A DNA stretch of 64,000 nucleotides, taken from the IMG/VR virus record IMGVR_UViG_2508501111_000003, positions 1 through 64,000 of that record. One strand, given 5' to 3'. Each line of letters starts with the position of its first letter. The stretch's first letter is position 1. The translations under genes were made by a program, and so were the position numbers. The notes beneath the pieces are model-generated. The model made no database searches and was not told the DNA's origin. It worked only from the letters and a program-made list of their open reading frames with translations. Positions 1-44,319 of this stretch are shown piece by piece. This DNA comes from a virus. Its lineage: Duplodnaviria > Caudoviricetes.

Positions 1-390
1 ATGAATCTCGAAACAGGTATGTTCTATAATACAATGATTAAGACACTCAAGGCGCTCTTACGCCAGCTTTTCCCCGACATTAATTGGAGCATTGCTGATT
101 ATGAAACGGTGATTAAACGCGGGTTTATTGATGCATTTGGTCATCCCAATGGGATTGTGATTACGGGTTCATTGCCCAATCGCCCAAAACAAACAGTCCA
201 CATCTCGAACTTAGTGCTCTATGATGCAACCCCGATGTCCGAGGATATGGCTATAACGGCATCCATGGTGGGTGCGCGGATGCGGATTCTGCTTAAGGAT
301 GATTCGTCTCTGCCAATTCCTGCGCATACCCCTGCGCAGAAAGCGCACTTGGGAATTTCCCAGGTGCGCTTCGGCCTAAGCATTTGCTAA
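1..390 (+). CDS. Hypothetical protein; may be 5'-incomplete, C-terminus runs into the phage terminator hairpin
   Basis: 129-aa ORF; last ~18 codons are read through the 341-371 hairpin; no recognisable motif. Confidence 0.35.
   Translation: MNLETGMFYNTMIKTLKALLRQLFPDINWSIADYETVIKRGFIDAFGHPNGIVITGSLPNRPKQTVHISNLVLYDATPMSEDMAITASMVGARMRILLKDDSSLPIPAHTPAQKAHLGISQVRFGLSIC
341..371 (-). terminator. Hairpin after relic tail-gene end
   Basis: AAGCGCACTTGGGA-ATT-TCCCAGGTGCGCTT, 14-bp stem with one G-U; same position as hairpins after the other tail-gene ends. Confidence 0.7.
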
Positions 391-944
391 CCACATATCC
401 AGCCGCTTGATCGGCGCTTCTGGCGTAACTGACACTTCGTCAGAGATCAAGTTAACCGAGGTTTCGGCCAGCGTGTAGCTGCGCTTATTAATTGCGCCGG
501 AAAAATCGCCAATGGTAATCACATCGCCTTGCGCACGTTGTACAATGTGCGCAAGGCCCGCACGCCTAGACTGGCGTGAAGGTAAAACACAGCGATCCGG
601 TTTGGGCTGTGCTATTTCCCAGGGCAATCGTGGTGGCTCCGACTTGGCTGCTGTAATCGCACTCGGCAGCGAGGAACGTGGCCAGCCAATTGGTTGGGCC
701 TTTGACTTTCCAATCGAACTGAATCACCTGAAAGCCTGCACTTTGCAGATTCGCTGGAATAAAGAGCGACTGGCAGCCAATCTCCTTGGCATTCGAGAAT
801 TGTTCGTTCTTGCGCGGGGATAAACTGATCGTGCCATCGTCGTGGCGCATCTCCCAGCGCTCGGGCGTGGACGAGGCAGTTTCCACGGGCAGCCGTCCAG
901 TTTGGTGACCCACCACCAGCCATCGTACTGAAGGTCATCGAGCG
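376..944 (-). pseudogene. Two fused fragments of the 559-aa tail gene
   Basis: Translations match 42640..44319: LDDLQYDGWW, TPERWEMRHDDGTISLSPRKNEQF, then GDVITIGDFSGAINKRSYTLAETSVNL; internal ~0.8-kb deletion near 575. Confidence 0.9.
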
Positions 945-1109
945 CTGGATTAAGAGCGTCCCGAGTACCTGTACTTGGGCAGGCCAGAGCGTAAAGGGCA
1001 TTGTGCATCTCCCATCCCCCAACCCTTGGGCATCGTCGATTAATCCAAAGTGGTGGGTGAAGTAGGCAGGGTCGGCATGGCATTTCGCCAATTCAACAGC
1101 ATTTGACAT
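943..1109 (-). pseudogene. terL: Terminase large subunit 5' stub
   Basis: MSNAVELAKCHADPAYFTHHFGLIDDAQGLGDG identical to start of 59395..60828; joined out of frame to the tail gene. Confidence 0.9.
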
Positions 1110-1750
1110 TGTTCCTCACGCCACTGCTGCAATTCCTTGGCAGCCTGTTCCAACGCTGGGCTATCAATCACAATCGGTGCGCTCCGATCGCCTTTATGCA
1201 CATGCTCTTGCTTCTGTTTGCGGCCTCCGGTTTCCTTGGCCAAGTCATCGAGCACCCCGCGATAATCACTAATCAGGGCCGAGTTATACCGATAAATCTC
1301 AACCTGCTCGGCATACTCGCCTGCCCCAATTTGTTTGACATCGCGCACCCATACATTCGGTCGCTTGTGCGGGTGATCGTCGTCAATCTCTTTAATTTGT
1401 TCTTCTAAATCCTTCGCTAACTCCTTGAGCTTGATCACCCGCTCAAAGTCGAGCGCGAGGCCTTCCTCAAACACCTCGCGGCGACGTGCAGCTAGCGCAT
1501 CATTTTTTGCTTGCTCCAGCTGCGCATCGTAGGCCTTGGCACGATCCTGCCAATTGAATTCGGTTGACCACCGTTCAAGACTTCTTAAATTAGGTTTTTT
1601 ACCCGACAAATCACCGTCATGTACCGATAAACGCTTGAGTGATCGGTTAATACCCATGCGCAGATAATCGTTGCAGGCCACCACGGCCTTATCTGATTCG
1701 TTGGCGTAGCGGTGGCCAATGATAAGTTGTACTGTTTCTTGCTTGGCCAT
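1040..1750 (-). CDS. terS: Putative terminase small subunit (relic 1)
   Basis: Paralogue of 60759..61478; overlaps terL start in the same way. Confidence 0.7.
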   Translation of the reverse strand: MAKQETVQLIIGHRYANESDKAVVACNDYLRMGINRSLKRLSVHDGDLSGKKPNLRSLERWSTEFNWQDRAKAYDAQLEQAKNDALAARRREVFEEGLALDFERVIKLKELAKDLEEQIKEIDDDHPHKRPNVWVRDVKQIGAGEYAEQVEIYRYNSALISDYRGVLDDLAKETGGRKQKQEHVHKGDRSAPIVIDSPALEQAAKELQQWREEQCQMLLNWRNAMPTLPTSPTTLD

Positions 1751-1774
1751 TGCTCGCCGCCTTGTACTCGCTGG

Positions 1775-1873
1775 TTAGATCTTGATCAAGGTCACGAAAA
1801 AAGCACCACAGATCCAGATTGATATAGAACAAAAAGCCATAGACAACACTGAGCCCAACGCCACCCAAATCAC
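1775..1873 (-). CDS. 32-aa hydrophobic peptide between endolysin and terS
   Basis: GTG overlapping amidase stop; MIWVALGSVLSMAFCSISIWICGAFFVTLIKI; positional analogue at 61523..61606. Confidence 0.4.
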   Translation of the reverse strand: MIWVALGSVLSMAFCSISIWICGAFFVTLIKI

Positions 1874-3354: not shown

Positions 3355-3625
3355 GGTGTTACTGGTTGCGTTACTGCTTTGTAACTGCATTTTCAAAAAA
3401 GCAGTTACGCTTTTTAGGGCTATCCAATCAGCTAAAAAGCCTGCTGTAACTGCGTAACTGCTTTTTCAGCGTAGCACTCACATGAGAAGAATATATTTTA
3501 GTAGTTCAATCGCATTATTCGTCCTATAAAAGCCTACAAAAAATATAATAAACAAAGACTATGTTAAAAAAGCAGTTACGCTACCAGTTACAGGCGAAAA
3601 AGCAGTTACGCCGTTTATTCCCGTT
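3355..3625. repeat. GCAGTTAC/GTAACTGC repeat cluster around an AT-rich core (origin-like relic)
   Basis: Copies near 3381, 3401, 3446, 3453, 3582, 3602 in both orientations; minus frame reads GVTAFSPVTGSVTAF. Confidence 0.6.
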
Positions 3626-3709
3626 GTTCCCGTTGATCGATGGTGAGCACCACATGTACCTTGTGGCAGCATGGTCAATGGCTGAATATCGGCTGAGCTG
3701 GGGGATAGC

Positions 3710-3838
3710 TCAGAGCTTCGTTTCAGACGAAAGCGTTATTTCAATGCCTTCAGGGGTTAACTGGGGTGTAGGCGGCTTAGCACTACCGCAGCTCCAGAGT
3801 GCAAGCATGACCACGATGAGACCGAGACGATGCAGCAT
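3710..3838 (-). pseudogene. Lipoprotein signal-peptide stub (42 aa)
   Basis: MLHRLGLIVVMLALWSCGSAK lipobox-like, SD GAGGAGG, then early stop. Confidence 0.4.
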
Positions 3839-4129
3839 AATCCCTCCTCAAAGATAATTGAGAAGAGTATAGAGCATTGGTAAAGAGGATCAATGGTTAT
3901 GTTAAAGTTATAGAGGCTACGCTACCAATCACATACAAAAAAAGATTCTAGTGAGTTAAATGAATGTAGCTCAGTAAAGTAATAGAAACTTTATTAATAT
4001 AGTTGTACGACAACGTTTAAACATGTTATACTCTGGTATATTATGATGCCTATTTCTGCTTAATTTTTTATTAATTATTTACACTTAGTAATGTAGTCTC
4101 ATGTAAGTAATTAAGACTGCTGTATTTCT

Positions 4130-5377
4130 ATGCCGATTACCCTTAAGACAATAGAATTATTTGCTGGAGCTGGAGGCCTCGGGCTAGGGTTTCTTCTCGC
4201 AAATCATCCAGGTGTCAATTTTAGGCCTTTATGTGCAGTCGATTTTAACGTAGACGCATGTACTAGCTATAATATGAATATGCAATGGCTGCATCAGAAT
4301 GCTCCTCATTTACAGACAACACAAGCTTCTAAGGCTTATCTGCGGAAAGTTGAATCCTTAAACGTTAATGCAGTGAAGAGGCTTTTCCAGTTACAACAAG
4401 GTGATCTCGATATTTTAATGGGTGGTCCTCCTTGTCAAGGATATTCATCTTCAAATCGCCAGGCATCAAAAGAAACACGCGATGAACTTAATAATATGGT
4501 GAAATCCTTTCTTGATCGAGTTCAAGATTTTTCACCAAAAATGTTTCTCTTAGAAAATGTCCAAGGAGTCACATGGACTGCCTCGACTGACGAAATGAGA
4601 ATACCTAGTGAGCAATTATCCTTTATAGATAATGAAGAGATTGCTGATGTTAAAGACTATTTAGTTCATAGAGCACGCGAGCTGGGTTATCACATATGGT
4701 ATTCGGTGCTTGATGCAGCGGATTTTGGTGTCCCTCAACATAGAAAACGATTTTTTCTTTTTGGTATTCGTACAGACTTGACAACTGACCCAAATATTCG
4801 GCTTGAAAAATTTATCAATCCTTATAGAACGAGCACACTTACAACAGTTGCCCAAGCTATTGAGGATCTTCCTGTTATTAATAATGGCGAGCATTGGAAA
4901 GGTAATAACTATAATCCGGTGGCGAATGGGTATATCACTATGATGCGTAGCTTTATGAATAATAATGTTTTATTTGACCACTTTACAACAAATCATCAAG
5001 AATATGTTCTTGAGCGTTTCAGAAATATTCCTGAAGGCGAAAATTGGAAATCTATAAAAAATATTATGAATACGTATAAAAATGTAAACAAAACCCATAG
5101 TAATATTTATAGAAGATTACAACGGAATGCCCCATCGCATACTATTAGTCATTACCGCAAAGCAATGACTATCCATCCTGTACAGAATAGAGGATTATCA
5201 TTTAGAGAAGCCTGTAGATTGCAGTCTTTTCCAGACTGGTATCGATTTAGTGGAACAAGAGAAAGTGCCCAACAGCAACTAGCGAATGCAGTGCCACCTT
5301 TGCTTTCGTCAAAGGTGGCACTGGCTATCGCAGATTATTGGTTATCTCTGCCACATAATGCTCTTATGAAAGATTAA
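4130..5377 (+). CDS. dcm: DNA (cytosine-5)-methyltransferase
   Basis: FAGAGG (I), GGPPCQG (IV), ENV (VI), QHRKR (VIII), RLQSFPD/LANAVPP (IX-X); AT-rich. Confidence 0.95.
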   Translation: MPITLKTIELFAGAGGLGLGFLLANHPGVNFRPLCAVDFNVDACTSYNMNMQWLHQNAPHLQTTQASKAYLRKVESLNVNAVKRLFQLQQGDLDILMGGPPCQGYSSSNRQASKETRDELNNMVKSFLDRVQDFSPKMFLLENVQGVTWTASTDEMRIPSEQLSFIDNEEIADVKDYLVHRARELGYHIWYSVLDAADFGVPQHRKRFFLFGIRTDLTTDPNIRLEKFINPYRTSTLTTVAQAIEDLPVINNGEHWKGNNYNPVANGYITMMRSFMNNNVLFDHFTTNHQEYVLERFRNIPEGENWKSIKNIMNTYKNVNKTHSNIYRRLQRNAPSHTISHYRKAMTIHPVQNRGLSFREACRLQSFPDWYRFSGTRESAQQQLANAVPPLLSSKVALAIADYWLSLPHNALMKD

Positions 5378-7439
5378 AGACAAAAGTATATTTGTCTTTT
5401 GTATCTGGAAATGTTATTGCAGGTATCCAAAAAGGTTTTCCATTCCAGTTTTCGCCAGTAACTTTGAATATAAATAAAGTTGGATATTCTCGGCTTGCTT
5501 TGGCTTTATAGCCGGGTGGTAATAAAGCACCAAATTTGTCTTTACTACCAATATTTCGATTACGGCTAACAATTAAAAGACCTCTCGTAATGTTTCCTGT
5601 CTTCATTAATTCCAGTGCAGATATAATTTTTTTGTCATTCCAAAGACTAAAAGTTCTAGGTACCGAATGGATATTATTTAATATATCTATCAGAATTTCT
5701 ATATCAACCTCTTTTTCCTCGGTCTTGATACCGGTAGTTGGATAGTCTTCCAATATGGCATCAATATTTTTAGTAGTTTTATCTATATCTGACTTATTGT
5801 AATATGGATATCTTTGTAAGTAATTCTTTCCAGAAACGTAATATCCTATACTAAACTTATTTAGAACATTGTTTCTTGTTGCTCTTACCGTGTTATTTAT
5901 AATAATACTGCGATAATTTTCATTAGGATATCTTTTTATTAAATCACGTAATGCTTTTTCTGATTCATAAATAACAGTAAATCTTTTTTCAATTTCTTCA
6001 GTTATAAATAGTCTTGTAACATCCATATGATTTTTTCTGTACCCATACATTCTTGCATGCTGAAGCATGGTATCCATGTTTGTTACTTTTGGTTGTCTCC
6101 CATAATATGTGACAATTAAATTTTTTATGGTGACCCCACGCGCTATTTTAGTTCCTCCAATGAAAATATTATATTTTCCTGAATATGTTGGTTGATAGGT
6201 CGTACTACTGTTAATTACACTTATATCTGTTTTTATAATAGACTCTCTTAATTCATTAATTATCGTTCCTAATGAAATACCATCCTCATATGTACTTATT
6301 ATGTCAGTATATATTTTTTCTAGATAATATATATCTTCACTTGTGATATTATTATCAACATAATCTATTAATGATTTTCTAAGTACTCCTATATATTTAT
6401 TTATTATTTGACTAATTTTATCATGATCTGCTTTTCTCGCACTAATATGACAAAGAAAAGAAAATCTAGTACTAGGTTCATCAACTATCTTGATAGTTGC
6501 TCCAATATAAAATGTTAGTAATGCATCTCGCAGACTATCTGGAATACTATCACCTTCTTGTTCAATCATCATATGGATATCATGCTGATCGATTCTTCGT
6601 ATAATTTTTGATTTACGTTCCTCTAATTCATTTTCATCATCATTTTCATAAATCATGTCAATTTCTTGTTTCAGCGCAAAAAACTGTTCGCTTCCAACAT
6701 AATCAGCCCCTGGTTCCAATAAAACAGTAAAACCAGGTCTTGATTCATGTCCAGAATCTTGAAGAAAGAGTGCTTGAGGAGTAGCTGTAACCTGTAATCT
6801 GACATGATTAGGAACTAAACGACGTATCTCTTCAATAGCACTGAACGTAGGCCCAGCCTCTATAAGAGGATTAACGCTTCTTCTTCGAGTATTAGTATCT
6901 AATCCACCCTCATCAGCTTCATCATCAATAATTAATGCTATAGGAAGGCCCATCTTGAGCTCTTCTTGAATTGTTCTAAGGGTTTGTTCTAACTTGTAAA
7001 GAATAGCAGTATTTTTTGTTGTAACTAATACTAAAACACCCTTAGGATCTTTAAGGGTTTGGGTCATCATTAGTATCTTTTGTTCCCAACTATCCTTCCC
7101 TTCCACTTCTATACTTTGTAAATCTTGTTTCAACCGCTCATCAATTGTCTGATTATAGAGTATAAGGTTATTAGAAGTAAGAATAATAAAGAGTCGATAT
7201 CCATTATCTGCCGCTAATGCTATAGCTGTAGTGAAAGCAAATGTTTTACCACTTTGAATATAGCCTAGAAGCAATCCATGTCGGTTTTGACTTCCTTCTT
7301 CGGCAGAAGGTAATTCTTGAATTAATTCTAGAATATTATTAATAAGCTTATCTGCACCATTCTCACCCATTGATTTTACTAAAACTGTGCGTAGTTGCGT
7401 AATATGTTTGCCATCGGTGATAATATCGTCAAGTTCCAT
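5364..7439 (-). CDS. Z1-domain SF2 helicase-like/endonuclease protein
   Basis: GYIQSGKT, IIDDEAD, TATP, KIARGVTIKNL, QHARMYGYR motifs; convergent with and overlapping dcm by 14 nt. Confidence 0.8.
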   Translation of the reverse strand: MELDDIITDGKHITQLRTVLVKSMGENGADKLINNILELIQELPSAEEGSQNRHGLLLGYIQSGKTFAFTTAIALAADNGYRLFIILTSNNLILYNQTIDERLKQDLQSIEVEGKDSWEQKILMMTQTLKDPKGVLVLVTTKNTAILYKLEQTLRTIQEELKMGLPIALIIDDEADEGGLDTNTRRRSVNPLIEAGPTFSAIEEIRRLVPNHVRLQVTATPQALFLQDSGHESRPGFTVLLEPGADYVGSEQFFALKQEIDMIYENDDENELEERKSKIIRRIDQHDIHMMIEQEGDSIPDSLRDALLTFYIGATIKIVDEPSTRFSFLCHISARKADHDKISQIINKYIGVLRKSLIDYVDNNITSEDIYYLEKIYTDIISTYEDGISLGTIINELRESIIKTDISVINSSTTYQPTYSGKYNIFIGGTKIARGVTIKNLIVTYYGRQPKVTNMDTMLQHARMYGYRKNHMDVTRLFITEEIEKRFTVIYESEKALRDLIKRYPNENYRSIIINNTVRATRNNVLNKFSIGYYVSGKNYLQRYPYYNKSDIDKTTKNIDAILEDYPTTGIKTEEKEVDIEILIDILNNIHSVPRTFSLWNDKKIISALELMKTGNITRGLLIVSRNRNIGSKDKFGALLPPGYKAKASREYPTLFIFKVTGENWNGKPFWIPAITFPDTKDKYTFVFNLS

Positions 7440-7561
7440 TATTCTAGACTCCTATATAGAAAAATATTAATCTGCTAGAAAAAATCTGAAATAACCCTTC
7501 CTCTCATATTTTAAGCACACTTGGGTTATATGTTGTCGGTCAACAGTCCAAGAATAATTAA

Positions 7562-8527
7562 CTAAATCCGATCACCCTTCGCCAGATTACATTTCCGACA
7601 AAGCAGCTGCACATTGCCGACGGTGTTTGCTCCGCCCTTGCTGTGCGGAATGATATGATCAAACTCAAGATAAGAGGCATCGCCACACTGGGTACACTTG
7701 CCCTGATCACGTTGCCACACTGCCAGTTTTACATCTTGGGGAATATAGCGGCTTTCTTGTCCAGTTTGGGGTGCAATAAACTCTCGTTTGGCCATACGCA
7801 CTAACACATCAAATACTGCTTCAGCCATGGTTGGATCTGCCACGCTATAGCGACCATTCCCACTTTTAACCGATAGTTCTAAGTAGATGCTGCCTGCCTC
7901 AGCGTTAATCCGCATGACCTTCTTCCAGTCGATGCTGCTTCCACCCGCTTGGGAAAGAAAATGCAGTTTCTTATTGGTAGCCACAAAACGCCCAGGTTGC
8001 AAGGTAGTGCCTTTGGCGGTGACTTTATGATAGCGGGCATCAGTTTCGAGATGGCAGATTTCGCCAGCATCGAGCCGAACGGTTGGTTGAATCGTTGGCA
8101 GATGACCTTGGCGCACATTACTAATGGTTTGCAAGTATTTGAGGCGCTGGAGCAGCGGTTGGGCTTGATGATCGGGGATGCGAAAGGCCTGTTGGAGTTG
8201 CTGAATATGGGCGGCTTCTTCATTCGTAATTACGCCATCGGTCGATGCAAAAGCCAGTGTGCGTTCAAGGAAGTTCAGTGCATCACCACGAATATAGTTC
8301 AGCGCCTCATCCCAGCTCAAGCCTTCTTGCTGCGAGCCTTGAATAAGGATCGTCCATTCTTGTGGCGATAAAAGCCCATCATTACAAAATTGCAGAAACG
8401 CCTGGCGAAAGCGCTGGAGTTGTTGTTGGACAACGCCGTCGCAGGGGCCGCAGCGATTGGTTTGACGATTGAAGCGTAAAGCACCCATAAGACCAGTATC
8501 TTGGTGGCAGCGCGTGCAAACTGGCAT
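7562..8527 (-). CDS. HNH endonuclease with N-terminal Zn ribbon, TerB-like repeats and PH-like domain
   Basis: CTRC..CGPC; DGLLSPQE/DGVITNEE; GRFVATNKKLHF; CTQCG..EFDHII..GG.N..N.QLLCRKCN; start 8527 after AGGAG. Confidence 0.8.
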   Translation of the reverse strand: MPVCTRCHQDTGLMGALRFNRQTNRCGPCDGVVQQQLQRFRQAFLQFCNDGLLSPQEWTILIQGSQQEGLSWDEALNYIRGDALNFLERTLAFASTDGVITNEEAAHIQQLQQAFRIPDHQAQPLLQRLKYLQTISNVRQGHLPTIQPTVRLDAGEICHLETDARYHKVTAKGTTLQPGRFVATNKKLHFLSQAGGSSIDWKKVMRINAEAGSIYLELSVKSGNGRYSVADPTMAEAVFDVLVRMAKREFIAPQTGQESRYIPQDVKLAVWQRDQGKCTQCGDASYLEFDHIIPHSKGGANTVGNVQLLCRKCNLAKGDRI

Positions 8528-8722
8528 GATCGTCTCACTCCTAGAAATCCAAAATACTCTGAGGTTAGGTATAGCTATATCCACATGAGGCTACAGCTAC
8601 TCTAGCGATCATGCTCGCCGCTGTCAAGAGGAGTTAGGGGGAAATCCCCCATGCGGTTTTCGATTGGTGACTAAAGGGCTTCTTGTAGGAAATATAAAGA
8701 GACTAGAGACTGGCCTTAAACA

Positions 8723-8750
8723 CAAATACCATCCAGTTGGATGGTATTTG
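8723..8750 (-). terminator. Intrinsic terminator
   Basis: CAAATACCATCC-4nt-GGATGGTATTTG perfect 12-bp stem. Confidence 0.65.
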
Positions 8751-8791
8751 CATGATCTTTGGCAGGATTGCGGTTACATCTAACGAATATG

Positions 8792-8985
8792 CTAGACGTT
8801 TAATTGTAGAACTGGTGCTGTCGGAATTTCATCCCACGTTCGTCCATCAAGCTTTCTCCCTGATGTTTTTTTACTTCCTGGACGCATGATTGTTTCGTCA
8901 TGAGGATCTGGACTCCATACATTATTAGGCTGATTTTTATAAATTGCTATGGTGTTTCTTGCGTCTCCGTAGATCAGCAGGGGTT
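8792..8985 (-). pseudogene. C-terminal remnant resembling phage Gp37/Gp68 (DUF5131) proteins
   Basis: Startless frame ending MRPGSKKTSGRKLDGRTWDEIP. Confidence 0.6.
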
Positions 8986-9620
8986 GGTATAGGTTTTAAG
9001 TGAAGCCGTTCATGACAATCTCGACAAAGCGTAATTCCATTCGAAACAACAAAACGTAGTTCTGGATATTTGGCAAATGCTTTAATATGATGAGCCTGTA
9101 AATTACCGCCGCGACGATCACCGCATGATTGACATGTGTATTCATCGCGTGCATAAACAGCATTTCGCCAGTCACGATATTCGGGGCTACGGCGTGCATC
9201 GTTCCTATGTATCCCCCCCTTCCAATTAGGGTTTCGTTCTCCGCGAGCCGCATTAACGCGTAAAACTTGGCTAATCTTTTGTCTTACCTCTTCGCTTCGA
9301 GGAATGCCACGAAGCGGGCTAATGCGTCCTATATGCGCCTCTCTCATACGTTGTTTTGCTTCTTCTGTATGGGTATGGCCTTTAAAAGTCGAAACCCTAC
9401 CTTTATGACTTTTACGAACTTTGACACGACTACATGCATGACAACGGGTTGATAAGCCATCACCACGAGTATGATCTTTATTAAACCACTCCCGTGGTTG
9501 CCATGATTTACATTTGCTGCACCATTTCAACCCTTGACTAAGATTTAATTTATACTCATCAAGTGATATACCTATTCTTTTGGCTGCTATTTTGAGTGAA
9601 CCTTCTAATGTCAGTGCCAT
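8937..9620 (-). CDS. NUMOD3 + HNH homing-endonuclease-like protein
   Basis: CSKC..CHAC; GHTHTEEAKQRMREA (NUMOD3); CQSCG...LQAHHI...NGITLCRDCH. Confidence 0.85.
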   Translation of the reverse strand: MALTLEGSLKIAAKRIGISLDEYKLNLSQGLKWCSKCKSWQPREWFNKDHTRGDGLSTRCHACSRVKVRKSHKGRVSTFKGHTHTEEAKQRMREAHIGRISPLRGIPRSEEVRQKISQVLRVNAARGERNPNWKGGIHRNDARRSPEYRDWRNAVYARDEYTCQSCGDRRGGNLQAHHIKAFAKYPELRFVVSNGITLCRDCHERLHLKPIPTPADLRRRKKHHSNL

Positions 9621-9921
9621 AATATAGCCTCGCTTTACTTCATGAACGTTTTTTCAAGCAATAGTAATATACTTAATTAGTTAAATTCTTTGGTACTTCC
9701 CAGTATTTTACAACAGATTCTATAATATTTGATAGTGTATATCGGGCGATTTTAATTTTAGGCTTATTAGGAAACAGAACCTCTTCAATAAGCCTCGGCC
9801 TATCGGCAGTAGAGTCAGATTTTCAACTTAGCAGTTCTGATAGCAGGAAAACCTATCTAAAATAGCGGATTAGTAGGTTTCTTTATTAATCTGTGGATAA
9901 TTTCCCTATGGAATTCTCTTT

Positions 9922-10785
9922 CTATTTAAACCATTTATCATAGAGGAAACTTGAAAATAAAGAAATAATTATAGCTATAATTACACCAAATAATATAAAG
10001 TTTTTTATATTTTTCTTTTTGTCATATTTTTTTATGTAATCTCCCTAATAAAAATTATATCTTGGAAAGAAATAATAAAATAATTTAATCAAAGGAAATA
10101 ATCCAAACATCATTATAAATGGTAGTACAAGAATAAATATCAAGCTTGAAGAACCTGTAAAAGGATTATCTATTATTGAAACCTTTTGAGATTCTATAAT
10201 TAATTTACCTAAATCTGTTATTTCTTTATTATTCCATCTATTTTCAACAGCATTAATCTTTTCTCTTCCAGAAGTTATCATTTCATTAAGTAGAATATAA
10301 AAAGATAAAAAAGATATTCCTAAAGCAGAAAATGTAATTGTTGATGATATAGTTTTATCTCTCAGAGGAACTTTTGATTTGATTCTTTTAATTCTTTCTT
10401 CCAATTGTGATGTTGTTATAAATACCCAATCCCTGTCATCACCTTCAATTTGGAATGATATAGAATGATTATTTGGTTCAGATAAGTATTTTGGATTTGA
10501 AAATGACATAAATATTCTATAATTATATGTATAAGATTCATCTTTATCAGTTAAATTTAATCTAATTCTATTTATAAGAGATGAACCATCATTCTTAAAT
10601 GAAAATATTGAATCTATATTTTCTATTTCACTAATAACTCCATTACCAAATAATACTTCTATATAGATTTCCGGATCGTTTGATTTGATTTTTATTTGTT
10701 GTAAACAAATATCAAGTAATCTTCTTAATTCTTGTTCATTTATAAAAAAACCGTTATCATATGATTTATTCAGTTCTGATCTCAT
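9922..10785 (-). pseudogene. AT-rich membrane protein with an in-frame TAG at 10045-10047
   Basis: Frame continues past TAG as GDYIKKYDKKKNIKNFILFGVIIAIIISLFSSFLYDKWFK, a further TM helix. Confidence 0.65.
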
Positions 10786-11023
10786 AAATCAAAGCCTCTG
10801 TCAACTTAATTCAAAGACAACAGGTATATAAGTAATATCCTTTAAGTTAATCCAACGAGTAGGTATAGCAAAGCTGGCATTTTGCAACACCCTTGCTTGG
10901 CTAATTGTCACTAAATTGTCATACTTAATTGAGCTATCTAATGTTAAAATAGAACATGGGTTCTAAAAGAGGGTATACATATGCTTGATGAAGATATCGT
11001 TGCACTAGCAAAATGGTTTGATA

Positions 11024-11425: not shown

Positions 11426-11454
11426 ATTTAATAACCCCAATTATTACAAATCGC

Positions 11455-11505
11455 AGTATAAATGATATATACACCGTTGACAATAGTATATACCTTTGAT
11501 ACAAT
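11455..11505. promoter_or_regulatory. Overlapping divergent sigma70-type promoters with candidate operators
   Basis: Plus TTGACA(11477)-17-TACAAT(11500) with TG extension; minus TTGTCA(11483)-17-TATACT(11460); GTATATAC and GATATATAC in the two spacers. Confidence 0.75.
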
Positions 11506-11542
11506 GTCCCCTAGAAAGTACAAACGGTCTTGGAGGTGTCCA

Positions 11543-11746: not shown

Positions 11747-11773
11747 ATCCAATAAACCCAAGGAGTAATTCCC

Positions 11774-11935: not shown

Positions 11936-11969
11936 ATCCCAAACCCAATTCACCTAGGAGCGCACAGCC

Positions 11970-33332: not shown

Positions 33333-33432
33333 GAAATGGGTGGAGAATCGCATTGACTAAACCATGCGATTCATTGATATATCAAGCTGCTATACTGAAG
33401 GACGCACAGCCCACTATGAGCGAGGAAGATCG

Positions 33433-33873
33433 ATGGAACTCCATCAATATCGAAATAGCAAAAATCGCACGATTATTGAAGAATTAACGTTCTCGGTAAA
33501 CACGTCCGAACCAGATGATCCCTATCGAGCCGTCTATATCATGTATCTTGATCTGCTCGCCGATCTGGTGGCCGTCCCCTATCCAACGCCATTATTTGTT
33601 GGAAAGAGCATGACGAACTTAATATTTCGTCGCGAAGCATACCCTGATCAAGAGTCAGTCTGTATTATTGGCTGGCAAGGGTGGTATACAGTTCAAGCAT
33701 GGGCAGAGCCAGCGACTGCGCCATGGCCCGACGCACGAATTATGTATAAAACACGCGATCGCGCCGAAACGATTCGGCATCTGCTTTGGGGACTTGAAGC
33801 TGCACCACTGTGCCAAGATGCTATTCAAGGGAACTATACGCGGTGGAAATCGCTCCAAGCAGGCAATCCCTAA
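33433..33873 (+). CDS. Partner protein copy 2 (11 aa shorter: CAA to TAA)
   Basis: GNP* vs GNPQPSTDAEGGAH* in left copy. Confidence 0.75.
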   Translation: MELHQYRNSKNRTIIEELTFSVNTSEPDDPYRAVYIMYLDLLADLVAVPYPTPLFVGKSMTNLIFRREAYPDQESVCIIGWQGWYTVQAWAEPATAPWPDARIMYKTRDRAETIRHLLWGLEAAPLCQDAIQGNYTRWKSLQAGNP

Positions 33874-34132
33874 CCATCAACCGATGCTGAGGGTGGAGCA
33901 CATTAATAGTCTTCTAATAGCAATAAGCCGTATGTTCTGGTATACTAACGTCAAACCTTCTCCTCTCTCTTCTCTCCCACAAGCGACCCCCAGCGGGTCG
34001 TTTGTGGTTTTAGCAGACCATTGCCAAGAGTTTATCCTTCGCGATGCCTCTGGTTATAAAGTTTATCTCAATAACTACTGCAAACCGCGCTTCACTCCGA
34101 GGCGCGGTTTTGTTTTTAGGAGCAATCAGCCA

Positions 34133-37394: not shown

Positions 37395-37545
37395 AAAATC
37401 CCAGTCAATAAATATTGGCTGGGATTTTCTTTCACTGAAACTACTTCAAATTTTCGCGCCGTGCCTCATAGCACGCTAACCGTGGGCCACGTGCTTCGGG
37501 TGATACGCGTAACTCACCACTGGCAGCATCATAGCTAGTTACGGC
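37395..37545 (-). pseudogene. Diverged orphan tail-gene 3' end plus terminator
   Basis: I*AVTSYDAASGELRVSPEARGPRL aligns ungapped to TLAETSVNLVTGEVSVTPEAPIKQL (10/25 identical); hairpin AAAATCCCAGTCAATA-AA-TATTGGCTGGGATTTT. Confidence 0.55.
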
Positions 37546-37832
37546 TTATATGACTGGCCATTAGACCTGTTGATTATTGATTATATTATCCGCAGTTTTC
37601 AAAGCATGCTTCTTTGGTTATAAGCCCTTCCAAGAACTCTGTTAATTAGTACTATGGTACGTAGTTATAGAACATATGTGATAGCTATTAGCTGTTAGGA
37701 AATTATTCTTATACTGGAGTATAACATCTGTCGGGGTATAAGGGGAAGAGCTGCATCTATTAATTAACTATCTGTACTTCTATGATAGGTCTCATATTCT
37801 TATAGTTCCACCATACTACATGTGAGGCCGCT

Positions 37833-40610
37833 ATGCAACCTCTTGAGTTTGTGCGAAAATGGCGAGGTATTCAGGTCAACGAACGACGTGCATATTATGA
37901 GCATTTTACCGACCTCTGTTCTTTAGTTGGTGCTAAAACCCCGCTTGAGGAAGATCCCACAGGAACATTTTATACCTTTGAGGCCGGTGTTACAAAACTC
38001 AATGGTGGAAAAGGATGGGCTGATGTTTGGAAAAAAGGGTACTTTGCAATTGAATATAAAGGCAAGCATGGGAATCTTAACCGCGCTTATGATCAACTTC
38101 TCCAATATCGTGAGGCTCTATTAAATCCTCCACTCCTAATCGTCTCCGATCTTGACAGTCTCGTTATTCATACAAACTTTACCAATACAGTCAAAAAGGT
38201 AACAACACTTACTTTAGATGAAACATTAACAAGAAATGGCCTTGATACAATTCGAAGTATTTTTTATGCTCCTGATACCTTTCGATCTCCAGTCACACCA
38301 GAGCGGGTAACCGAAGAAGTTGCTGCAAAGTTCGCCCGCTTAGCCCAGCTTATTACCCGCTATGAAAAACACACTTCTCCGCAAGAAATTGCACATTTTT
38401 TAACACGATTATTATTTTGTTTATTTGCAGAAGATGTCAATTTACTTCCAAAGGATATCTTCTCTCGTTTAGTGACTCAAACACGTGGGAAATCCTCTGC
38501 GTTTGCAGCCCAACTCAGCCAGCTTTTCAATGTCATGACTACAGGAGGATGGTTCGGCATTGAGGAGATACGGCATTTTAACGGGTCGCTCTTTGATAAT
38601 GCAACGGTTTTACCCATGGATAGTGAAGCACTTGATATTCTAGTGGATATCTGCTCCTATGATTGGTCATCGATTGAACCAGCAATTTTTGGAACTCTGT
38701 TTGAACGTTCACTCGATCCGGCGAAACGGAAGCAACTGGGTGCACACTATACCAGTAAAGATGATATTTTACTGTTAGTCGAACCAGTTGTTATTCAACC
38801 TTTAAGGGAAGAATGGAGTAAGCAAGAACAGGTTATCGAGGGATTAGTTACCCAGCGTAATGAAACAGTGGGTAATGATGTAACCAAAATTAATCGGCAA
38901 ATTGAATTCCATATCAATACCTTCTTGCATAAACTGAGATCAATAAAAGTCCTTGATCCTGCCTGTGGAAGCGGCAATTTTCTCTATATCGCATTAAAAT
39001 TGTTGCTCGATTTGGAAAAGGATGTTATTCGTTTTGGTGCTGATGCAGGCTTGCCGTTACAAATCCCACAGGTCAATCCAGAGCAATTTCTTGGGATGGA
39101 AGTTAATGCTTATGCTCATGAGTTAGCTCAAATTACGATTTGGATTGGCTATATTCAGTGGATGAAAGAAAATGGATTCGGAAATTTATCGGAACCTATC
39201 TTGAAGTCCCTCAAAACAATTCATCGTATGGATGCGATTTTAGCTTTTGATGCTGACGGGAATAGCATTGAGCCTGCCTGGCCTCAGGCGGATTACATTA
39301 TTGGGAATCCACCGTTTTTGGGTGGCAATAAGATTCGGCAAGAGCTGGGTGATGGCTATGTTGACGCATTGTTTAGCCGTTATGCGGATCGTGTTCCTGC
39401 ATTTGCTGATCTGGTGTGTTACTGGTTTGAAAAGGCTCGCGCAATGATTGGCAGTGACATAACTCGACGAGCTGGTTTTATTGCAACCAATTCAATTCGG
39501 GGTGGGTCGAATCGAAAAGTTTTAGAGCGTATCAAAACGTCTGGTGATATTTTTATGGGTTGGTCAGATCGCCCGTGGATTCTTAATGGAGCGGCAGTAC
39601 GGGTGTCAATGGTGGGATTCGATAAAGGCGAAGAAATAATACATAGTTTGAATGGGATGATAGTTCAATCCATTAATGCAAACCTAACCCAAGACATTGA
39701 TACAACTAAGGCTTTAATCCTTCCTGAAAATAAAAATATTATTTTTGGAGGAACAAAGAAAGGTGGAAAATTTGATATTACACAAGGTATATATGATGTA
39801 TTGATGCAGAGTCAAAATAATCCCCATGGCCGTCCCAATAGCGATGTAATTAAGCCATGGGTCAATGGACAAGCGTTATTAGGAAAGGGAGAAAAACGAT
39901 GGGTTATTGATTTTGGCGTAGATATGTCTCTGGAGGATGCAAGTCAGTATGAAAAAATATTTGAGTATATCAAAAAAGAAGTTTATCCTATTCGTATAAA
40001 TAATAGGATGGAGAGCAGAAGCAAGCATTGGTGGCTTCATTCTTTTACAGCCCCATCAATGCGGCATGCAGTCGCCACTATCTCAAGATATATCGCTACG
40101 CCTCGGGTATCAAAATACCGACTTTTTGTATGGGTTGATAGCAACACAATCCCAGATGATGGGACATATATTGTTGCCCGCGACGATGACTATTTTATGG
40201 GTGTGTTGCATTCAAAAATCCATGAGTTATGGGCATTGCGGCAAGGAACATTTCTTGGGGTTGGAAACGATCCACGCTATACCCCAACCTCAACCTTTGA
40301 AACCTTTCCCTTCCCATGGCCACCAGCGAAGGAACCCAAGGATTCACCGCTGGTTAACGCCATTGCCGAGGCAGCAAAAGAGTTAGTTGAGAAGCGGGAT
40401 CGGTGGCTGAATCCGGCTGGAGCAACCGAGGCCGATTTGAAAAAGCGCACGTTGACCAATCTCTATAACGAGCGGCCAACGTGGCTCGATTTGGCGCACA
40501 AAAAGCTGGACAAAGCGGTGTTTGCGGCCTATGGGTGGCCGGATACCTTGACCGATGATGAAATCCTTGGCCCTTTGCTGGTCCTCAATCACGATCGGGC
40601 GGCAGGCTAG
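37833..40610 (+). CDS. MmeI-like type IIL/IIG restriction-modification enzyme (N6-adenine MTase + nuclease + TRD)
   Basis: ADVWKKGYFAIEYK nuclease motif, LGAHYT, LDPACGSGNF, GNPPF. Confidence 0.88.
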   Translation: MQPLEFVRKWRGIQVNERRAYYEHFTDLCSLVGAKTPLEEDPTGTFYTFEAGVTKLNGGKGWADVWKKGYFAIEYKGKHGNLNRAYDQLLQYREALLNPPLLIVSDLDSLVIHTNFTNTVKKVTTLTLDETLTRNGLDTIRSIFYAPDTFRSPVTPERVTEEVAAKFARLAQLITRYEKHTSPQEIAHFLTRLLFCLFAEDVNLLPKDIFSRLVTQTRGKSSAFAAQLSQLFNVMTTGGWFGIEEIRHFNGSLFDNATVLPMDSEALDILVDICSYDWSSIEPAIFGTLFERSLDPAKRKQLGAHYTSKDDILLLVEPVVIQPLREEWSKQEQVIEGLVTQRNETVGNDVTKINRQIEFHINTFLHKLRSIKVLDPACGSGNFLYIALKLLLDLEKDVIRFGADAGLPLQIPQVNPEQFLGMEVNAYAHELAQITIWIGYIQWMKENGFGNLSEPILKSLKTIHRMDAILAFDADGNSIEPAWPQADYIIGNPPFLGGNKIRQELGDGYVDALFSRYADRVPAFADLVCYWFEKARAMIGSDITRRAGFIATNSIRGGSNRKVLERIKTSGDIFMGWSDRPWILNGAAVRVSMVGFDKGEEIIHSLNGMIVQSINANLTQDIDTTKALILPENKNIIFGGTKKGGKFDITQGIYDVLMQSQNNPHGRPNSDVIKPWVNGQALLGKGEKRWVIDFGVDMSLEDASQYEKIFEYIKKEVYPIRINNRMESRSKHWWLHSFTAPSMRHAVATISRYIATPRVSKYRLFVWVDSNTIPDDGTYIVARDDDYFMGVLHSKIHELWALRQGTFLGVGNDPRYTPTSTFETFPFPWPPAKEPKDSPLVNAIAEAAKELVEKRDRWLNPAGATEADLKKRTLTNLYNERPTWLDLAHKKLDKAVFAAYGWPDTLTDDEILGPLLVLNHDRAAG

Positions 40611-40724
40611 GCGGGGAATGGTGGGGGGCGTGCGCGTTTATCAAGCAGCACGCTCCGGCTTGGTAGCAGTGCGGGTTTTACTTTTGTCCACTATCCCTCA
40701 AGATGCTGGAATTTTATCGCTAAA

Positions 40725-40776
40725 ACACCACGACCCTGATTCGGGCTGTGCTATCAACCGACCAGGGTCGTGGTGT
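40725..40776. repeat. Hairpin family Y, copy 3 (loop CTGTGCTATCAA)
   Basis: ACACCACGACCCTG..loop..CAGGGTCGTGGTGT; T-run on minus strand. Confidence 0.75.
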
Positions 40777-40827
40777 GAATTGTCATTTTGCTCGTGAGCC
40801 TGCGCAGTATCCTACGAGCGATTGCAG

Positions 40828-40941
40828 TATATCATAGCGACTTTGGGGCTTACAAGAGCCGCCGATTGGCACTGTCAAGGCTGATCGGTGGCTTTCACCC
40901 AACTTGCGCTACGAGGGCGCACACGGTTGCTTAAGCAGCTT
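40828..40941 (-). other. Structured element X, copy 2
   Basis: Reverse complement aligns with 22132..22240. Confidence 0.75.
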
Positions 40942-40953
40942 GAGTGTCATAGG

Positions 40954-41904
40954 CTAGTCAACGAATTGGTTTTCGGATGTCTTACTCCGAATGATGCCTG
41001 CAAACAATAAGAGCGCTTCACGAAACTTGTCATGCTCGACTACAACGAGCTTGTGTAATCCGTCTAATGTGTGCGGTTGATTCGCGGATGTTGATATGGC
41101 TCCTATGGGTCGTGGCGATAACTCATGTATCAAGGCATTTCGCAATACTTTCAGTTCACTGGTCTTGCCTATATAAGCTATGCGTATCTTATTGAACGCG
41201 TCAAAAAAATAGCATTGGTTATCATTCCCTTTAATCTTTGTAGGGATACTTTCATCAAATAATGTTTTCCATTCACTATCTTTTTTAGGAGGTATCAGAC
41301 CAAAGTATGCGGGAAGCGCATATTTTGTAAGTCGCTCCCAGGATGATGTGATTCTTATAATACAGTTTTCTAGATACGTCCATGCTCGTAATATGCCAAT
41401 ATTAACTTGGCTCATACTGATTATATTTACATTGGCCCCTAATTTCTTTCTTCGGTTTTTATACCTCTGCAAATCTGATAGATTCAAAAAATCATAAACA
41501 CCTATATCTACCCACTGATTAAATAATGTATCAATCTGGGTTTCTGGGTACAAAAATCGCCCAAATCCCTCAAGGTTACAATTGATAAGCATAAACTGGC
41601 TGTCTATTTCCAGAGCTATTCCAACGGTTTTAATACGGTTTTTCATTTCATCATCAAATACGTGCCATGCACTAGGCCAAGACTTTTGGTATGTTATTGA
41701 TTTGCGGATAACCTTATTGTTGCCATCGAGCTTGGCCGGAAGCCCATAAAGATAGAGGGCATGGAGGTTTCTTAAATTTGCACGAATGCTCTCTGGTATG
41801 TCGATCACTGACTCTTCTTGTTTATGAGTTTCATGAGAGGTTTTCGTCCATCGTACTCCTATACCCATTACGGATTCATTTTCGTTGATATTGAGATCTT
41901 CCAT
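40954..41904 (-). CDS. Putative HEPN-domain protein (Cthe_2314-like)
   Basis: LENCIIRITSSWERL helix and R-x4-H motif RNALIH. Confidence 0.6.
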   Translation of the reverse strand: MEDLNINENESVMGIGVRWTKTSHETHKQEESVIDIPESIRANLRNLHALYLYGLPAKLDGNNKVIRKSITYQKSWPSAWHVFDDEMKNRIKTVGIALEIDSQFMLINCNLEGFGRFLYPETQIDTLFNQWVDIGVYDFLNLSDLQRYKNRRKKLGANVNIISMSQVNIGILRAWTYLENCIIRITSSWERLTKYALPAYFGLIPPKKDSEWKTLFDESIPTKIKGNDNQCYFFDAFNKIRIAYIGKTSELKVLRNALIHELSPRPIGAISTSANQPHTLDGLHKLVVVEHDKFREALLLFAGIIRSKTSENQFVD

Positions 41905-42141: not shown

Positions 42142-42210
42142 CGATTGAGGGATTGACCAAACGGCTGTGGCATGATTGAATTGTGGGGAAACATTTTGTT
42201 GGGGGTGGCT

Positions 42211-42540
42211 ATGACAAGGTACGAGCAACCTTTATTCCAGCTTCGAGACGGGGTAGGCCGTTTATGCTCTAGTGGTTCACTAGATGAGCGACTGGACGGT
42301 GCTTACGGGCATTTTGCCGCAACGTCCCTTTTCTTTACTGCAATAGATGATACAGCAATCGACACATTAGTTGCGGTGCGCGATGTCTATTCCCGTTTAG
42401 TGGAAGCATTTGCTGTTCATGGCGGGCGAGGTGGGTCTGACCATGAATCTATAAAAGGCGATTTAACACCAGCAGGTTTTGATACAATCGCGCAGTTATA
42501 TCTAACTCTTTATGATACACTACGAGGCCAAGACCTCTAA
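42211..42540 (+). CDS. Conserved ~100-aa hypothetical protein (paralogue of 18967..19269)
   Basis: MTRYEQ..L..G+..LC...RL.GAY pattern shared. Confidence 0.75.
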   Translation: MTRYEQPLFQLRDGVGRLCSSGSLDERLDGAYGHFAATSLFFTAIDDTAIDTLVAVRDVYSRLVEAFAVHGGRGGSDHESIKGDLTPAGFDTIAQLYLTLYDTLRGQDL

Positions 42541-42602
42541 ACGACAAAACGACGGTCGCCGGAGCGCACACGCCGTTTTGTGGAAGCATCACTTCATATC
42601 AA

Positions 42603-42631
42603 GGAGTACTTGGTACTACCCCAAGTGCTCC
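42603..42631 (-). terminator. Hairpin after tail gene
   Basis: GGAGTACTTGG-TACTACC-CCAAGTGCTCC. Confidence 0.65.
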
Positions 42632-42639
42632 CTTCTTTA

Positions 42640-44319
42640 TTAGCCCTGCGCCAGCCAGAGATCGAGTTGCTTGATCGGTGCTTCGGGCGTAACACTCACC
42701 TCACCTGTCACGAGATTAACCGAGGTTTCCGCCAGTGTATAACTGCGTTTGTTGATCGCACCGGATAAATCGCCGATGGTGATCACGTCGCCCCGACTGA
42801 GCAGGTCAAGCGGCTCTCTTACGTTGTACTCATTGCGCACGGCGCGGACACCCAAGCTGGCGCGAACGGTCGGTGCAGCATCGGTTAGGGCTACACTGCG
42901 CAACGTGGCCGCTTCGGTCGCGTCGGTGGTTTCGCTGGCAATGGTGCGCTGGCGGACAATGCCTAAGGCATAGCGCTCGCTGGCGTTTTCCGCAAACGCG
43001 GTATAGAGTGGCTGGTTACTCGCGTTTTTGTAGGCAAAACGTACCTGATTGGTTGCCTCGCCCAGTGCTTTCTCTAACTCAATCGAGCCATCGACCAAGG
43101 CGAAGGTGCGGCCCACTTCTTTAGGGCCAAAGTACAGATATTGGGCATCGTCAACATAGGTGACATACTGCGCCTGATCAGCCAACTCCTGCACCACGCT
43201 TAAGCCCGATGCAGCCGACCATACGGCTTCCAAACAATCGCGACTACTCTTGCTGATCCGCGCACTGCTCTGCTTGATCCCGCTACCCGGGTTGGTTGTG
43301 AGGTTGCGGCTTAAGACATCCTCCACAATCTCTTTGTCCGTGACCACAATCCCGCGCACCGTGCTGCCCAGAACGTGGGTCTTGGTGAAGGCGGCTTGGA
43401 ATTGGGTCGCGGTGACGGCCAAGACTACGACGCTCTCACTATTCGCGCCGCCGCTTTCGATGGTCAGGCGTTGGCCAACCGCGATATTGGCGGTACTCGC
43501 CACGGTCACAAAGGCTGTGCCGATGGCAATCGCGCCGCTGGTCGTGGTGTTCACCATATTGGTGGTGACGGTGGCCACGCGGAGGTTGCTGATCTTCAGG
43601 TAATCATCGCCTGTTTCGCCAATATAGGTTGCCAGCGCCGCGTTGTAATACATCGCAACACTAACCAAGGGCCGCGCCGCGAAGGTGAAGCACATGGAGC
43701 CAGTTTGGGCCGTGCCGTTGCCGAGGGCAATCGTGGTGGCTCCGGTTTGGCTGCTGTAGTCGCGCTCGGCAGCGAGGAAGGTCGCCAGCCAATTGGTTGG
43801 GCCTTTGAACCGCCAATCGAACTGAATCACCTGAAAGCCGGTAGTGTTCAGATTCGCCGGAATGAACATGGATTGACGGCCAATCCCCTTGGCGTTCGAG
43901 AATTGTTCGTTTTTGCGCGGAGACAGGCTGATCGTGCTATCGTCGTGGCGCATCTCCCAGCGCTCGGGCGTGGACGAGGCGGTTTCTACGGGCAACCAGC
44001 CATCGAGCTTGGTGACTGACCACCAGCCATCGTACTCCAAGTCATCGAGCGTGACGATCAGATTGTGGCATTCAATCGCCAAGCCCTGATCAATCAAGCG
44101 CAGGGTTACGGTGCGATAGCGCAAAACCTTGCCATCGTTGCGTTGCACCACAGCGGTCAATAATCGCGCTTGGGCATACAGCGTTTTGGCGATGAACGGC
44201 GCAAGGCGCACACTGGCGGTTAGGCCATTGGTGCTCAAGGTTGCGTCCGTGACCTGGCGATCAAACCGTGCCAGTTGCACATTGGTGAAGGGATCATAAA
44301 GCGAAATCGCGTACTGCAT
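42640..44319 (-). CDS. Putative tail tip/Tal-like protein (559 aa)
   Basis: Last gene of virion operon. Confidence 0.65.
   Translation of the reverse strand: MQYAISLYDPFTNVQLARFDRQVTDATLSTNGLTASVRLAPFIAKTLYAQARLLTAVVQRNDGKVLRYRTVTLRLIDQGLAIECHNLIVTLDDLEYDGWWSVTKLDGWLPVETASSTPERWEMRHDDSTISLSPRKNEQFSNAKGIGRQSMFIPANLNTTGFQVIQFDWRFKGPTNWLATFLAAERDYSSQTGATTIALGNGTAQTGSMCFTFAARPLVSVAMYYNAALATYIGETGDDYLKISNLRVATVTTNMVNTTTSGAIAIGTAFVTVASTANIAVGQRLTIESGGANSESVVVLAVTATQFQAAFTKTHVLGSTVRGIVVTDKEIVEDVLSRNLTTNPGSGIKQSSARISKSSRDCLEAVWSAASGLSVVQELADQAQYVTYVDDAQYLYFGPKEVGRTFALVDGSIELEKALGEATNQVRFAYKNASNQPLYTAFAENASERYALGIVRQRTIASETTDATEAATLRSVALTDAAPTVRASLGVRAVRNEYNVREPLDLLSRGDVITIGDLSGAINKRSYTLAETSVNLVTGEVSVTPEAPIKQLDLWLAQG

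Follow-up and report, generated by a model that had tools for sequence, protein, structure and literature searches.

We analysed a stretch of 64,000 nucleotides (nt) from IMG/VR virus record IMGVR_UViG_2508501111_000003, hereafter the window, which corresponds to C1:1539375-1603374 of genome G000 (a 6.35-Mb chromosome and two plasmids; ~51% GC). Positions prefixed with C1 or C2 refer to that genome unless genome G006 is named, and all others refer to the window. Three sibling temperate siphovirus prophages of Herpetosiphon lie in the window, one with a complete-looking structural module (prophage C) and two relics (A and B). The last conserved late gene in this phage family encodes a tail-tip protein of 559 amino acids (aa), beyond which lies variable cargo. 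Between the cargo blocks stand short pieces of the 3' end of this tail-tip gene, cut off from the rest of the gene, which we call orphans. Here we describe the orphans, the hairpin that follows them, and the cargo that they separate, and we weigh the explanations for their origin.

Copies of the tail-tip gene end

Copies of the gene end were searched by tblastn, blastn, and a genome-wide nhmmer profile, and the methods agree; the confirmed copies reached nhmmer E values of 1e-27 to 1e-56 in the genome-wide search. The features of the window are collected in Table 1. Two full genes are present (copies B and C), and two orphans, B_o1 and B_o2, both lie downstream of copy B in the same orientation, as a first-pass annotation of the window had reported for orphans and the nearby full gene. 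B_o1 carries an in-frame TAG at 20915-20917. Copy B is the last gene of a truncated prophage in which early genes (11462-14185) are fused to the 3' end of the tape-measure gene (14243-14935). A further full gene lies outside the window at C1:637903-639576(-), and two further orphans were found in the related genome G006. The orphan C-termini share 82–91% aa identity with the full genes and encode the same conserved C-terminus.

Table 1. Positions of the tail-tip gene copies, orphans, hairpins, cargo, and phage genes in the window
Feature	Position	Strand	Evidence and remarks
Remains of tail-tip gene copy A (third copy)	339-954	-	aa 87-213 at 575-954; aa ~490-557 at 385-534; hairpin 343-369
Full tail-tip gene copy B, 559 aa	16411-18090	+	Open reading frame (ORF); 95% aa identity to copy C
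Hairpin directly after copy B stop codon	18100-18130	+	Alignments, covariation
Cassette 1: two single-domain response-regulator receivers	18136-20800	.	18349-18735 (+), 19441-19821 (-); Pfam
Cassette 1, continued: 100-aa gene; 153-aa gene	20061-20522 (153-aa gene)	-	
Orphan B_o1, last 49 codons + stop (aa 511-559)	20801-20947	+	tblastn 88%; nhmmer E 3e-54
B_o1 hairpin	20953-20985	+	Stop of convergent 364-aa gene ~30 nt past it
Cassette 2: 364-aa polytopic membrane protein	21013-22107	-	Convergent with tail gene; ~7-8 hydrophobic segments
X linker with two hairpins, non-coding, ~300 nt	22125-22415	+	Recurs at 40650-40980(-)
Orphan B_o2, last 21 codons + stop (aa 539-559)	22435-22500	+	tblastn; nhmmer E 3e-27; local alignments
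B_o2 hairpin	22510-22536	+	Scored as intrinsic terminator on minus strand
Replic_Relax gene, arm B	26773-28020	-	Pfam; 86-95% aa identity in six arms; in conserved convergent operon 26200-29839 closing the cargo region
Replic_Relax gene, arm C (mirror copy)	32388-33332	+	Pfam
Candidate very decayed orphan, arm C	37459-37545	-	Between MmeI-type gene and 172/201-aa genes
MmeI-type restriction-modification gene, arm C cargo	37833-40610	+	Pfam; antisense to tail gene
Hairpin after copy C stop codon	42603-42632	-	Alignments
Full tail-tip gene copy C, 559 aa	42640-44319	-	Last gene of prophage with complete-looking structural module
485-aa protein, then 559-aa tail-tip gene		-	End of prophage C structural module
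Tape-measure protein, 1363 aa	45790-49881	-	Prophage C
Major capsid protein	53607-54695	-	Prophage C
Portal + Mu-F-like protein		-	Prophage C structural module; Pfam/ORF scan
terS-like gene and large terminase	59395-60828	-	Pfam/ORF scan of prophage C

The first-pass annotation had counted six copies of the gene end, which included the four named above and was too many. Its copy at 341-520(-) is the end of a decayed whole gene rather than an orphan: this third copy keeps aa 87-213 and is joined to remains of terS/terL (943-1762 matches 60662-61490), so that the locus is a degraded prophage relic with several internal deletions. Its diverged copy at 37395-37545 amounts, taken alone, to a 21/28-nt match (z ~2.3 versus shuffles) with a different hairpin, undetected by nhmmer at E<10. 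The case for it comes from elsewhere in the genome. A decayed orphan at C1:3179317-3179420 (the 3.18-Mb orphan; nhmmer E 5e-8) adjoins a homologue of the sequence upstream of the MmeI-type gene, with window 37645-38435 matching C1:3179305-3178525. Because the candidate at 37459-37545 occupies the same position beside this shared sequence, it is probably a very old orphan, supported only by its position. A weak tblastn match at 3566-3643 was judged to be due to chance.

The array of relic A continues 3-5 kb to the left of the window, at C1:1536189-1536291(-) and C1:1534674-1534758(-). These pieces are one orphan split by a 1.43-kb insertion sequence (IS): the end of the first piece and the start of the second are the same 20 nt, GGTGAGGTGAGCGTTACCCC, and without the IS the orphan is whole, its 49 codons being followed by the stop codon and the hairpin. 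The IS itself (C1:1534758-1536187) encodes a DDE_Tnp_1 transposase of 444 aa between inverted ends TAGGCATCAACCTTA and has other copies at C1:3487732-3489164, C1:5760786-5762217, and C2:252586-254015, all four being 100% identical. Each of the four has a direct duplication of its own on either side, which at ~20 bp is unusually long and of which the left repeat ends in CCC(C)A. A fixed attachment core, considered for the identical start GGTGAGG of two short orphans, was rejected, one of these starts having been made by the ~20-bp IS target duplication. The other orphan with this start may extend 12-16 nt upstream with a 6-nt insertion, a reading of the alignment that the local aligner did not recover.

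Five distinct 5' breakpoints were resolved among the orphans, at aa ~486 and ~502 (both in G006), 511 (arms A and B, an arm being the sequence that runs outward from a tail-gene end), ~533 (the 3.18-Mb orphan), and 539 (B_o2). All five fall within the last 73 of 559 codons, and every orphan keeps the stop codon and then the hairpin. For uniform breakpoints, the chance of such clustering would be ~(73/559)^5 = 4e-5, a figure to be read with the caution that the five breakpoints are not fully independent.

Comparison of B_o1 with seven full genes revealed 19–25 synonymous and 4–8 non-synonymous codon differences, and none of the sampled full genes is closer to it than ~86%. Given this bias and the lack of a close gene among those sampled, the divergence arose in the functional gene of an unsampled sibling rather than by local duplication and drift. 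The orphans thus are the ends of diverged, once-functional sibling genes, in agreement with the first-pass claims that the copies differ synonymously and that they come from different sibling phages. Signs of decay after that are a nonsense codon in B_o1, the IS in arm A, and indels with approximately equal synonymous and non-synonymous changes in orphan G6o_1.

The sequences joined to the orphans recur in different combinations. The junction between the 153-aa gene and aa 511 is common to arms A and B with 83% nt identity, as part of a segment (20046-20901, the 153-aa gene and the orphan) that recurs at C1:1537051-1536189 with 83% identity; past the shared aa 511 orphan, arm A continues with a 146-aa gene whereas arm B continues with the 364-aa gene. 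The 83% is about the divergence of the tail genes of relic A and B (83–88%), which indicates that this junction was inherited and not made twice. An orphan with a convergent alpha/beta-hydrolase gene is likewise shared, at 80% nt identity, between C1:3179366-3180488 and G006, and the upstream partners differ. Upstream of the 3.18-Mb orphan lies the MmeI sequence, and the MmeI-upstream sequence (83%) also stands beside the candidate orphan of arm C, although the cargo that comes after it there is not that of the 3.18-Mb locus. The IS-split orphan of arm A is a mosaic: over its first 84 nt it matches copy B at 94% (including 60 nt with no mismatch) and beyond that copy C at 92%, and it shares only 78–85% identity with B_o1, its true homologue. 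The mosaic and the combinatorial junctions bear the signature of gene conversion and of crossovers inside the repeats.

The cargo slot, its linkers, and the surrounding prophages

Eight arms were compared from the tail-gene end outward: A, B, C, D, and the distant relative E in this genome, and those of G005, G006, and the European Nucleotide Archive (ENA) contig L021. Seven of the eight could be traced as far as a Replic_Relax gene, which is conserved (86–95% aa identity), lies on the other strand, and belongs to an operon converging on the tail gene. The slot between the tail gene and the Replic_Relax operon measures 2.8–8.5 kb and has almost nothing in common among the eight arms. The cargo had been placed at the very end of the phage by the first-pass annotation; it is instead internal to the phage genome, between these two conserved flanks, in a slot comparable to known defence hotspots. 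The orphans stand at cargo boundaries, and Pfam and the comparison of arms agree with the statement of the annotation that each orphan separates a different cargo block.

The GC content of the cargo is 36–53%, versus 55–59% for the structural genes. Variable defence genes are prominent in it: an MmeI-type enzyme in arm C (broken in arm A), an OLD-like ATPase-TOPRIM protein, GmrSD, and an Eco57I-like enzyme in arm D, a methyltransferase-Mrr fusion and a PIN_8 protein in G005, and NACHT and AAA_15 proteins in L021. Receivers, sigma factors, amine oxidase, and membrane proteins make up other cargo. The 364-aa membrane protein has no match in Pfam or PADLOC. Promoter-like sites in the cargo are no commoner than in shuffled sequences, and hairpin terminators are supported. 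Pfam scans and neighbourhood searches found neither a tyrosine nor a serine recombinase within the cassettes or next to them, as had been claimed for integrases. The only recombinases near the prophages are large serine recombinases at C1:1623396, at the far end of prophage C, and C1:609590; the nearest to the cassettes is ~40 kb away at the other prophage end, and no tyrosine recombinase was found within several hundred kb.

Arms B and C meet tail to tail in a 7.9-kb unit (26094-34013) with 1.78-kb inverted ends that are 89% identical. Within it a pair of operons diverge, and membrane proteins, a Replic_Relax gene, and a partner gene are found in both. A flavin amine-oxidase gene (24658-26064; C1:1527943-1529537) is 95–97% identical between arms A and B, versus 83% for the surrounding phage DNA, and this closeness suggests a recent exchange or conversion between the two arms.

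The hairpin that follows the gene end was aligned in 15 copies. Pairing in the stem reaches 89.5%, and 6 pairs show compensatory changes; one of these, for example, appears as G-C and as U-A in seven copies each. None of 500 shuffles reached the covariation score or the percentage paired, and pairing falls to 29–54% in slid registers. In the 10 nt past the stem, 5–8 T are found on the antisense strand in 14 of the 15 copies and 0–3 on the sense strand in 10 of the 15; the stop codon of the tail gene, together with the A-run that follows, serves as the template for the U-tract of the antisense transcript. A scan tool called the B_o2 hairpin as a terminator on the minus strand. The hairpin is thus predicted to be chiefly a terminator for the antisense strand. 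Antisense genes stop 12–44 nt past the hairpin at B_o1, the IS-split orphan, G6o_1, and the 3.18-Mb orphan, and after most full tail genes the next gene is co-oriented. Copies of the hairpin alone follow co-oriented cargo genes, namely the OLD-like gene of arm D and an RNase H gene in L021.

Two other linkers recur. The X linker consists of a short stem, a AGTTGGGTG box, and two hairpins; it is common to arms B and C and to the cargo regions of G005, G006, and L021, where its neighbours are unrelated genes. An element of ~110 nt, with ~16 genomic copies (26094-26203 and 33900-34013 in the window), marks the outer end of every Replic_Relax operon and also borders cassettes in related prophages. 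Its parts are a GC-rich hairpin, a run of purines, and a TTGAC...TATAC box, and it could act as a terminator-promoter module or represent a small mobile repeat.

The structural module of prophage C runs on the minus strand from ~61500 to 42640 (terS to tail, ~42640-61478). An AlphaFold model of the tail-tip protein (predicted local distance difference test score, pLDDT, 73) resembles tail-tip proteins of lambda (gpJ complex), T1, T5 (pb3), and Sf11, with a sandwich like that of a carbohydrate-binding module, and its last 46 residues have very low confidence. These residues (514-559, encoded at 42640-42780) are the part that corresponds to the orphans, and they have a pLDDT of ~30 despite their highly conserved sequence. 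Judging from the model, this C-terminus may fold only in the assembled tail tip.

Among relatives that carry the same tail gene, Herpetosiphon geysericola DSM 7119 and a metagenome-assembled genome of an uncultured Chloroflexia member are the closest. Genome G000 has no gene for a photosystem reaction centre. A protein search for relatives returned only six close ones, three of them with usable DNA, and a metagenome scan returned nothing. The tail-tip protein has no match in Pfam or PHROG, and ten scanned proteins of the phage family, those of the tail tip and the Replic_Relax operon among them, gave no PHROG match. PHROGs and PADLOC gave nothing for the tail, Replic_Relax-operon, or cargo proteins, megablast against a phage database gave no match, and Rfam and tRNA scans of the window found nothing. 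The analysis also provides an initial account of a family of temperate phages in Herpetosiphon (Chloroflexota).

Relic B (11024-14935) has retained a cI-like helix-turn-helix repressor (11024-11440, minus strand) and a divergent early operon. These are joined, with nothing in between, to the final 295 nt of the tape-measure gene, so that one deletion of ~30 kb has spared the repressor, two intact tail genes, and the cargo. Window 3400-11000, which separates relics A and B, is a low-GC island (25–40%) carrying a Dcm methylase gene convergent with that of a Z1/ResIII protein and two HNH endonucleases, one of them with NUMOD3 motifs. In G006 the ~54-kb prophage is inverted relative to G000 (C1:1624012-1624282 versus G006:C1:1379691 and 1433532). 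One of the inversion breakpoints lies inside a large serine recombinase gene, with the N- and C-terminal parts at opposite ends of the inverted segment.

Explanations for the orphan ends

We consider it probable, from the comparison of the copies and their neighbours, that the orphans are scars of cargo gain by illegitimate recombination between sibling phage genomes, through sequential displacement. Homology-facilitated illegitimate recombination (HFIR) would be the most likely route, and the layout and the clustered breakpoints fit it. The tail gene would act as the homologous anchor and the other joint would lie within the tail gene of the partner, some dozens of codons ahead of its stop, with the result that a duplicate gene end, its hairpin, and the adjacent cargo would be shifted downstream. 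A working convergent cargo unit would then have to carry the hairpin together with a piece of the tail gene: because its terminator needs the last codons of the tail gene, a convergent cargo gene must keep them, so that the scars would always be the extreme 3' end. Later on, the 70–190-nt repeats could serve as homology patches for gene conversion with full genes and for the reshuffling or deletion of cassettes. We infer the recombination pathway, the direction of events, and their occurrence in viable phages. The first-pass proposal that recombination at the gene end moves cargo accordingly holds in part: the mosaic orphan and the shared 5' junction with different cargo speak for it, and accretion in viable phages stays conditional.

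Several observations weigh against cargo gain by displacement. The independent examples are few, all from one phage lineage and two genomes, and no orphans were found of two related tail-gene lineages (38% and 25% identity). B_o2 has no convincing convergent gene after it, and the hairpin may be just a general terminator module that is standard in the family. Finally, orphans are absent from the complete-looking prophages D, G005, and G006-main, the one in arm C is doubtful, and the clear orphans lie beside relics (A and B) or where there is no phage at all (the left array of G006 and C1:3.18 Mb). This distribution also fits decay of stacked prophages within the chromosome, which we rank as the main rival although we regard it as unlikely. 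Under this explanation, repeated lysogeny at one region would be followed by large deletions that leave only the last few dozen codons of a tail gene and its cargo beside the cargo of a neighbour, and the arrays would be graveyards, not built or carried by viable phages. Three sibling prophages do lie within ~110 kb, two of them with large internal deletions, and the IS, the nonsense codon, and the frameshifts indicate that the orphans are decaying. However, deletions ending at random would seldom place five end-points in the final 73 codons, and the junction between the 153-aa gene and aa 511 is only 83% identical between A and B, which points to inheritance through diverged phage lineages. 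Units of orphan and cargo moreover recur in the genome of another species and at a distant locus with different partners.

The hairpin and the linkers invite explanations of a different kind. The gene end with its hairpin could be kept as an insulator or terminator against antisense read-through from cargo expressed in the lysogen, keeping antisense transcription out of neighbouring cassettes and the late operon, with the coding part being incidental. The antisense T-tracts, the minus-strand terminator call, the convergent genes that end just past hairpins, and the hairpin-only copies after other cargo genes all agree with this, but it would explain why the gene ends are kept and not how they originated, and up to 73 coding codons are superfluous for a terminator. 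As a full account we think it quite unlikely; it is compatible with cargo gain by displacement. Site-specific insertion, in which the gene end and hairpin would be an attachment site (like attC or the end of a tRNA gene) that is duplicated when circular cassettes enter, is to our mind very unlikely. The recombinase would perhaps be the adjacent Replic_Relax protein or a phage serine recombinase. Repeated hairpin-bearing elements punctuate co-oriented cassettes, compensatory changes preserve the hairpin structure, every array has a Replic_Relax operon at its border, and the X linker and the 110-nt element also recur at cassette borders. Against these stand the 5' ends of the repeats, which vary from aa ~486 to 539 without a fixed core, the one apparent shared start (GGTGAGG) being partly explained by the 20-bp target duplication of the IS; no cassette contains a recombinase, the nearest serine recombinase being the distant one described above, and most arms have cassettes without any orphan. 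A variant in which the gene end, hairpin, and linkers are cassette recombination sites whose single-stranded hairpin is handled by a Replic_Relax-type protein, allowing integron-like capture of defence genes without a tyrosine or serine integrase, strikes us as highly speculative and improbable. We rejected a diversity-generating retroelement, for which we see hardly any chance. In it the downstream copies would be template repeats that rewrite the 3' end of the tail gene, and a short co-oriented 3'-end repeat downstream of the gene is indeed the layout expected; but the differences are mainly third-position transitions and not adenine-specific, the encoded C-terminus is conserved rather than variable, and Pfam scans of the neighbouring genes found no reverse transcriptase.

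Comparison with known systems

Jackson et al. 2009 reportedly described C-terminal displacement arrays of Rhs genes. The arrays described here have the same form as those of Rhs and type VI secretion system (T6SS) loci, in which a full gene is followed by co-oriented 3' fragments truncated at their 5' ends, each with its old downstream neighbour. The orphans likewise are the last 21–73 codons of the gene and lie co-oriented downstream of a full copy. Sequential displacement has been proposed for Rhs genes and the effector-immunity arrays of the Vibrio T6SS, with HFIR and a later exchange of whole arrays by homologous recombination suggested for the latter (Kirchberger et al. 2017, PMC5361080, citing PMC2935791, PMC122324, PMC122325). 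The likeness to Rhs and contact-dependent inhibition (CDI) arrays noted in the first-pass annotation concerns how such an array forms and does not extend to membership or function. The orphans carry no variable C-terminal toxin domain but the same conserved C-terminus throughout, and what lies downstream is a membrane protein, an alpha/beta hydrolase, or small ORFs instead of a cognate immunity gene. Unlike in Rhs and T6SS loci, the anchor in the Herpetosiphon phages is a tail-tip gene, the cargo is mostly defence, and recombination would change the cargo only and leave the tail protein as it is.

Phage morons, reportedly described by Juhala et al. 2000 and Hendrix et al. 2000, resemble the cargo in being extra genes after the late operon that have their own base composition and differ between similar phages; morons also have their own terminators, a role that the hairpins are predicted to fill in the cargo. 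To our knowledge, a moron is usually described as having been cleanly inserted between two neighbouring genes, and strings of duplicated flanking-gene ends are not part of that description. Islands in tandem at tRNA ends (tycheposons) and integron arrays are alike in that short gene-3'-end repeats or hairpin sites punctuate their cargo. They differ in having a fixed core and a dedicated integrase, whereas the Herpetosiphon arrays have variable breakpoints: the starts of the repeats vary, and no dedicated integrase was found in or beside the arrays.

Defence hotspots of P2/P4-type prophages and satellites, reported, it is said, by Rousset et al. 2022, share the fixed slot between conserved phage genes with a different anti-phage set in each relative. 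The slot between the tail gene and the Replic_Relax gene, with its variable defence genes in related phages, is of this kind. It differs in its phages, which belong to a group with Chloroflexota hosts, in its tail-tip and Replic_Relax flanks, and in the recombination scars that are visible inside the slot. The turnover of defence hotspots has mostly been inferred from end states, and the Herpetosiphon slot still shows readable intermediate scars: displaced ends of the flanking gene mark the joints between blocks, and the mosaic orphan and the combinatorial junctions point to patches that were reused in recombination. The displacement process is known for toxin loci and little described for phage cargo. 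If cargo gain by displacement is the true explanation, hotspot turnover in these phages follows the displacement logic of Rhs and T6SS arrays.

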